Shown here: piece after piece, positions 13,977 to 14,364 of the stretch
Numbering within the stretch: position 1 is the first letter of the stretch
How the letters are laid out: every line of letters starts with the position of its first letter
IMG/VR virus record: IMGVR_UViG_2778261395_000001
Direction: 5' to 3' (one strand)
DNA: 15,435 nt
DNA from: a virus
Taxonomy: Duplodnaviria > Heunggongvirae > Uroviricota > Caudoviricetes
Made by a program: the position numbers and the translations under genes
Notes under the pieces: model-generated
Seen by the model: only the letters and a program-made list of their open reading frames with translations
What the model was told of the DNA's origin: nothing
Database searches by the model: none

Positions 13977-14139
13977 GAGGTTGCCCCGTATTCAGTGTCG
14001 CTGATTTGTATTGTCTGAAGTTGTTTTTACGTTAAGTTGATGCAGATCAATTAATACGATACCTGCGTCATAATTGATTATTTGACGTGGTTTGATGGCG
14101 TAGATGCACGTTGTGACATGTAGATGATAATTATTATCA

Positions 14140-14364
14140 TTTTGCGGGTCCTTTCCGGCGATCCGACAGGTTACGGGGCGGCGACCTCGCGGGTTTTCGC
14201 TATTTATGAAAATTTTCCGGTTTAAGGCATTTCCGTTCTTCTTCGTCGTAACTTAATGTTTTTATTTAAAATACCCCCTGAAAAGAAAGGAAACGACAGG
14301 TGCTGAAAACGAGCTTTTGGGCCTCTGTCGTTTCCTTTCTCTGTTTTTGGCCGTGGAATGAACA
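14140..14364 (+). other. Lambda-type cos site: cosQ, cosN (GGGCGGCGACCT at 14176..14187) and cosB
   Basis: ...GATCCGACAGGTTACG|GGGCGGCGACCT|CGCGGGTTTTCGCTATTTATGAAAATTTTCCGGTTTAAGGC... is nearly identical to the joined right and left ends of phage lambda as I recall them; Nu1 starts about 190 nt after cosN, as in lambda. Confidence 0.8.

Follow-up and report, generated by a model that had tools for sequence, protein, structure and literature searches.

Among the closest described relatives of the locus studied here is the cos region of phage lambda (NC_001416; 48473..48502 + 1..190), in which cosQ, cosN, the I2 spacer, R3, I1, an inverted R2, and R1 follow one another. The large terminase subunit (TerL) nicks at cosN, and terminase then stays on the cosB end, docks on the prohead, and translocates in the direction of Nu1 (PMC4669245, PMC9026076). 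cosQ serves in termination (PMC4669245), and packaging of the lambda type ends only at a downstream cosQ together with cosN (PMC4669245, PMC9026076). Within cosB, R3 spans bp 50-65, the small subunit (TerS, Nu1) contacts bp 55-63, and the distance between cosN and cosB is critical (Murialdo and Feiss 2022, PMC9026076). Mutations of bp 56, 58, and 59 affect packaging (PMC9026076), and the same bases were singled out by Feiss et al. 2015 (PMC4669245). Passive cos sites that are acted on in trans occur in tandem prophages (dilysogens) and in cosmids, in which two cos sites point the same way and are a packageable distance apart; from a chromosomal cos of this kind, helper terminase packages a repressed tandem prophage to give 1-4 virions per cell (PMC4669245). 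The Gram-negative PICIs (EcCICFT073 and relatives) are likewise chromosomal and non-autonomous, with a lambda-like cosQ and cosN and dependence on helper terminase (PMC9026076). They have no helper-type cosB, carry Rpp in place of TerS, and excise and replicate on helper induction. Finally, the cryptic prophage DLP12 of Escherichia coli K-12 MG1655 (formerly qsr', b0560 region) is already reported to hold a lambda cos homologue that is a recombination hotspot (PMC3945230, PMC545071). Recombinants of lambda with DLP12 exceeded those with Rac or Qin ~100-fold in frequency (De Paepe 2014, PMC3945230), 10 of 19 junctions adjoined cos, double-strand breaks at the DLP12 cos were put forward as the explanation, and the nu1, R, and Rz genes of DLP12 proved functional in lambda (PMC3945230). 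Poteete 2004 likewise used a 3.5-kb patch containing the DLP12 cos (PMC545071).

We analyzed a 15,435-nt stretch of DNA (hereafter the window) and found that the part with cos belongs to the defective lambdoid prophage DLP12 of E. coli, integrated at the tRNA-Arg gene argU. ARAGORN placed tRNA-Arg(tct) at 674-750, intD lies on the tRNA side, and the genes from ybcK to appY are ordered as in DLP12 of MG1655. Positions 13700-15435 match the chromosomes of E. coli PCP07083 and HCM-26C-1 at 100%. In the annotation of PCP07083 the genes run fimZ, tRNA-Arg, intD, a truncated methyltransferase gene, a P fragment, ren, emrE, ybcK, ybcL, ybcM, ybcN, ninE, ybcO, rusA, ylcG, quuD, an intact porin gene on the opposite strand, essD, rrrD, rzpD, iss/bor, ylcI, a gene for a 765-aa "phage tail tip domain-containing protein", stf-like genes, appY, and ompT. 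The early region (~2060-3975; 4391-6274 of L001, the identical genome) is gutted, such that a truncated DNA N-6-adenine methyltransferase gene abuts the P fragment and ren. It contains no cI, cro, O, or ori, and this DLP12 therefore has no immunity or replication module. Three open reading frames that cross cos (13852-14004 on the plus strand, 14262-14420 on the minus strand, and 14300-14506 on the plus strand) found no support as genes.

Compared with K-12, the prophage is integrated at the same argU site and its genes follow the same order, and the segment from ylcI through cos to nu1 is 97.7% identical; the differences lie in what surrounds it. The porin gene (the nmpC locus; ompC in the identical genome) is whole in the window, where it encodes 360 aa at 10256-11338 on the minus strand between quuD and essD, whereas in K-12 it is split by IS5. 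Identity to K-12 is ~91% from the porin gene to bor and ~98% in the flanking quuD and cos-nu1 segments, and the lower value between the flanks shows that DLP12 is mosaic between strains. The interval from bor/iss to ylcI (13470-13780) lacks ybcV and ybcW, the counterparts of lambdap78 and lambdap79 of lambda, both of which are present in the K-12 prophage. Phage PhiR34_1 has the same compact bor-ylcI layout and is 99.2% identical to window 13399-14881, versus 97.7% for K-12 DLP12. That this phage is closer to the window than K-12 DLP12 is suggests, at the level of sequence, exchange between DLP12 copies and active phages.

The preliminary description of this DNA had called cosQ, cosN, and cosB essentially lambda-like and had proposed an alignment to lambda with scoring of the R and IHF sites. 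We carried out this alignment locally, with the joined ends of lambda NC_001416 as reference, and all subsites were recovered in lambda order and spacing with the R boxes and the IHF site conserved (Table 1). It pairs positions 13765-14881 with lambda 48092..48502+1..707; 1082 of its 1118 columns are identical, and the sole indel is 1 bp long (lambda 138). True homology stops at approximately lambda 696 (window 14870), and up to that point (13765-14870 versus lambda 48092..48502 + 1..696) the sequences are collinear at 96.8% identity. cosQ is placed at lambda 48473-48479, the coordinates reportedly given by Wieczorek and Feiss 2001. The cohesive end GGGCGGCGACCT is found exactly at 14176-14187, the coordinates that the preliminary description had given for cleavage.

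Table 1. Positions, in window coordinates, of the features at and around the DLP12 cos
Feature	Position	Strand	Basis or comparison
ylcI (YlcI/YnfO family, 64 aa), last gene before cos	13782..13976	-	ORF; PCP07083 annotation
lambda right-end homologue (lambda 48092-48502), to the cosN top-strand nick	13765..14175	+	393/411 bases identical
cosQ GGGTCCT (lambda 48473-48479), packaging-termination subsite	14146..14152	+	unchanged; no indel before cosN
cosN: cohesive end GGGCGGCGACCT (14176-14187) plus 2 bp on each side (nicking site as defined in PMC9026076)	14174..14189	+	identical to lambda 48501..14
cosB R3 (lambda bp 50-65), critical TerS site	14225..14240	+	one change, G54A at 14229
I1, IHF bending site between R3 and R2 (lambda 74-91)	14249..14266	-	consensus scan
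cosB R2 (inverted)	14284..14299	-	exact R-box; no difference from lambda
cosB R1	14325..14340	+	exact R-box; no difference from lambda
Nu1 (TerS, NohD), codons 1-168	14365..14868	+	translation; Pfam Phage_Nu1; PDB 6hn7_B and 1j9i_A matches
C-terminal part of J (~codon 563, lambda 17192 onward), in frame with Nu1	14871..15435	+	runs off the window end

In the interval 13980-14364 the window differs from lambda at 16 positions, nine to the left of cosN and seven to the right (G54A, A73G, T102C, G134A, a deletion of G138 in the loop between R2 and R1, T145G, and T176G). None of the 16 falls in cosQ, cosN, the R3 contact bases 55-63, I1, R2, or R1. G54A sits at the edge of R3 beyond the contact bases and is the sole change within any nominal R site; bp 56, 58, and 59 are unchanged. 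The changes that flank I1 (lambda 73 and 102) fall outside it, and the best matches to the IHF consensus in cosB are equal in the window and in lambda (lambda 74-91). Because lambda 48487..53 is identical to window 14160-14228, cosN and the spacer between cosN and R3 are free of any change or indel. The alignment shows no indel from cosQ to lambda bp 137, so that the critical cosN-cosB spacing is kept. A scan of the 15.4-kb window for the R-box CGTTTCCKTTCT, allowing up to one mismatch, returned three sites, at 14228-14239 (plus strand), 14284-14295 (minus strand), and 14329-14340 (plus strand), against 0.10 expected; none of 200 shuffled controls reached three. R2 and R1 form an inverted repeat, as expected. 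By every sequence criterion that we applied (cosN, cosQ, R3-I1-R2-R1, the R3 contacts and spacing, and TerS), the site belongs to the lambda complex-cos family. A satellite of the cos-type PICI class was rejected on gene content: unlike PICIs, the window has a helper-type cosB with three lambda R-boxes, Nu1 directly beside cos, and truncated replication genes, of which only the P fragment and ren are left.

Just upstream of cosQ we observed a promoter-like sequence (GTGACA-16 nt-TATCAT, 14113-14140, plus strand, 10 of 12 matches) directed to cos and Nu1. Two differences from lambda, T48444C and C48467T, are present in all six of the other phages compared and bring this sequence nearer to consensus than its lambda counterpart. 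Three promoter-like sites were seen in the region versus 1.7 expected, and this candidate promoter may drive expression of Nu1 independently of the late operon or may have arisen by chance.

Immediately to the right of cosB, the Nu1 ATG at 14365 corresponds to lambda bp 191, as in lambda itself. Residues 1-168 differ from lambda Nu1 only by K48R, A75T, and L132I, and residues 1-47 are identical. The Pfam Phage_Nu1 model is covered over positions 1-164 of 164 (E = 3e-100), and the protein matches the solved lambda TerS structures 6hn7_B and 1j9i_A. The retained part spans the winged helix-turn-helix, the oligomerisation domain, and most of the TerL-binding tail, with the last 13 residues lost. 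The recognition helix (residues 17-24) and the wing (residues 31-39; residue positions from PMC9026076) are those of lambda, in agreement with the earlier claim of an intact N-terminal DNA-binding domain. At the junction between 14870 and 14871, nu1 is joined straight to J, which confirms the deletion of terminase A and of all head genes that had been described. The missing segment, lambda 697 to 17191, held A, W, B, C, Nu3, D, E, FI, FII, Z, U, V, G, T, H, M, L, K, I, and half of J, and we found no A, B, C, D, or E gene in the window or in the 17 kb downstream of it. Thus, unlike the cos of lambda, the cos in the window sits in a prophage without TerL or head genes, and the TerL (gpA), portal, and capsid genes that an autonomous lambda packaging module has in cis are absent. 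The part of J that remains is 94.5% identical to lambda J DNA and contains the Pfam domains Ig_J, Ig_J_second, Phage_Tail_Tip, and Ig_GpJ_C. The full Nu1::J fusion, 765 aa in the identical genome (L001 16666-18963), is accordingly a chimera of a complete Phage_Nu1 domain with the Ig-like, tail-tip, and receptor-binding domains of J.

The junction in the window is a secondary one. In ATCC 8739 and the B strains, an older junction joins nu1 through lambda 699 out of frame to J at ~codon 210, with a 191-aa "terminase small subunit" as its product; the window carries a further deletion of 1054 bp that restores the frame. As one uninterrupted piece, the nu1/J junction of the window is limited to two genomes, PCP07083 and HCM-26C-1, among 5426 complete E. 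coli genomes. K-12 has a different structure, in which the full 181-aa nohD is followed by an A fragment (aaaD) joined to tfaD, versus Nu1 codon 168 fused to J in the window. Judged by sequence, these junctions reflect ongoing lineage-specific decay around an undamaged cos region. The deletion end-points are clustered (between 14870 and 14871 in the window, between 2674 and 2675 and at 3726 in L005, and between 2840 and 2841 in L004). The left end of the 1054-bp deletion is 3 nt upstream of the older nu1/J junction of ATCC 8739 and BL21, and its right end is ~15-19 nt from the right end of an independent 866-bp deletion in BL21. This clustering may reflect chance, a local hotspot, or selection.

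From these features, the DLP12 cos very probably represents a wild-type cosQ-cosN-cosB of lambda specificity, retained next to a truncated small-terminase gene, that serves as a passive cis substrate for cutting by a helper terminase. DLP12 is unable to package any DNA by itself, as it is without TerL (A), portal, capsid, and most tail genes and its Nu1 is 13 residues short; because it supplies no packaging protein other than a truncated TerS, the site can act only in trans. [quoted passage not shown] The chromosome would thereby suffer a double-strand break, recombinogenic on its left (cosQ) side, and such a break would make the lysis-cos-nu1 patch a hotspot for the exchange of modules between phage and prophage. 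On the right side, abortive one-ended packaging would proceed without termination through the J remnant, stf, appY, ompT, nfrAB, cus, and ent/fep. Cleavage at this cos by a lambda-specificity terminase in trans is plausible: chromosomal cos sites are accessible, as seen in helper packaging and in the recombinant junctions of K-12, and for the copy in the window we infer both cleavage and recombination on this basis. The identity and integrity of the site, its sharing of an allele with viable phages, and the absence of a second cos downstream are shown by the sequence comparisons. The K-12 evidence for cutting of the DLP12 cos is itself indirect, as it comes from the clustering of junctions, and the K-12 cos differs from that in the window at lambda 48472, 53, 54, 85, 134, 145, 176, 187, and 188.

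A related proposal holds that the wild-type cos and the DNA-binding half of Nu1, in a prophage that is old and otherwise gutted, owe their state to more than recent ancestry and are actively maintained, by repeated gene conversion from lambda-like phages or by selection, as a recombination dock where lysis-cos-terS modules are traded with infecting phages, or as a terminase decoy, with occasional transfer of the ompT-cus-ent region by one-ended packaging from cos; we consider this extension very unlikely. The preliminary description had also claimed that a retained cos could mobilize adjacent host DNA, and this part of its interpretation was not supported for this genome: the intact cos, the Nu1 domain, and the deletion from A to mid-J all stood, but host-DNA mobilization and the implied novelty found no support. 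The idea to be weighed is that, through this cos, a helper lambdoid phage packages and transduces DLP12 or neighboring host genes, in the manner of a satellite or of lateral transduction. The site is wild type, a chromosomal cos is accessible to helper terminase, and 4591 of 5426 complete E. coli genomes (85%) contain a cos core of the lambda type (window 14130-14364), with a median of 2 and up to 8 cores per matching genome, so that packageable pairs of cos may exist in some strains. Termination, however, needs a downstream cosQ and cosN, and we found no second cosN (with up to one mismatch) in ~60 kb downstream of the DLP12 cos in PCP07083, whereas dilysogens and cosmids offer two sites; transduction via a second cos was rejected for this genome. 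The ~60 kb exceeds a lambda headful by a good margin, and packaging of the lambda type gives no mature particles when a terminating cos is lacking. In addition, DLP12 has no O or ori (only the P fragment and ren) and therefore forms no concatemers. Packaging from a single cos in situ was reportedly described by Sternberg and Weisberg in 1975 as giving tail-less "doc" particles with protruding DNA, and not infectious transducing particles. We conclude that transduction from this site is highly unlikely.

We also considered whether cos is intact in looks only, with G54A and the other cosB changes having inactivated it to leave an inert fossil. G54 is conserved in R1, R2, and R3 of lambda, and R3 is the R site most sensitive to mutation (PMC9026076). 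The comparison with other phages argues against this. In a nine-way alignment of lambda, the window, K-12 DLP12, and six phages, every difference of the window from lambda recurs in several of the six, and apart from G54A the six cosB differences each occur in at least 5 of these 6 viable phages. Over the 225 bases of lambda 48449 to 190, which begin just upstream of cosQ and reach the Nu1 start, the window matches PhiR42_1 (PV340562) exactly, A54 included, and this core is the only cos of that phage. The PhiR series comprises lambda-related temperate phages used in plaque assays (PMC13190303), and we took PhiR42_1 to be plaque-forming from its GenBank record and from the use of the PhiR panel in that study. 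A scan of IMG/VR with an exact 33-mer containing A54 returned 65 contigs, of which 48 had enough downstream DNA; nu1 followed by a lambda-type A was present in 43 of the 48, and at least 30 of the 43 matched the window at all 225 bases of the cos core (14140-14364). One such contig (L046) encodes a 181-aa Nu1, a 641-aa A, and a portal-sized ORF of 533 aa. Nu1 residues 1-168 of the window are likewise identical to those of PhiR42_1; this phage, PhiR34_1, and the IMG/VR lambda-like prophages differ from the window in having the full nu1-A-portal-capsid module. The same core is present in dozens of prophage contigs with intact nu1, A, and portal genes; together with the unchanged bases 56, 58, and 59 and the unchanged spacing, this makes an inert site very improbable indeed, and G54A as a sign of R3 decay was rejected.

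Because it is identical to PhiR42_1 and to at least 30 IMG/VR contigs with nu1 and A, the cos in the window is, on sequence grounds, a common wild-type allele of lambda-like phages and not a decayed one; by the same comparison, lambda itself has the less typical cos sequence. G54A lies in the CGTTTCC core that is common to the three R sequences of lambda, and it may quantitatively affect the affinity of TerS. The cos of K-12 DLP12 (L006 6600-6835) carries private changes found in none of the phages compared (48472 beside cosQ, T85A in I1, and 187-188), as well as C53T at the edge of R3, which it has in common with phage 2H10. It thereby looks slightly more decayed than the copy in the window.

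That cos and the Nu1 remnant are under selection for a benefit to the host, as a decoy that titrates or poisons the terminase of an invader, is extremely improbable: Nu1 is undamaged over residues 1-168 and keeps its DNA-binding domain intact, the fusion is short of the final 13 residues where a TerS lacking 30 residues binds TerL poorly (PMC9026076), the Rpp proteins of PICIs set a precedent for interference aimed at TerS (PMC9026076), and the cos core is widespread among complete genomes, but the in-frame fusion is confined to two of them, the sister lineages with different, out-of-frame junctions or a full nohD show a pattern of neutral decay, and Nu1 is identical to a phage allele, so that recent phage ancestry or gene conversion accounts for its intact state. 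K-12 and B strains with DLP12 also support good growth of lambda.

Returning to the passive substrate of a helper terminase, the novelty implied by the preliminary description gives way to the known DLP12 cos-nohD patch (De Paepe 2014; Poteete 2004). What is new lies only at the level of the strain, namely an unblemished copy of the common phage cos allele and a rare secondary deletion that created an in-frame Nu1::J. The significance is small beyond correct annotation of the locus. Recombinants between lambda and the prophage are documented to arise from the DLP12 cos patch, which explains how lambda stocks can acquire the lysis, cos, and nu1 alleles of the host prophage. Common laboratory B strains such as BL21 and its relatives match the window at 100% over 13700-14870, and therefore a lambda-specificity terminase expressed in these strains has a second, chromosomal target.
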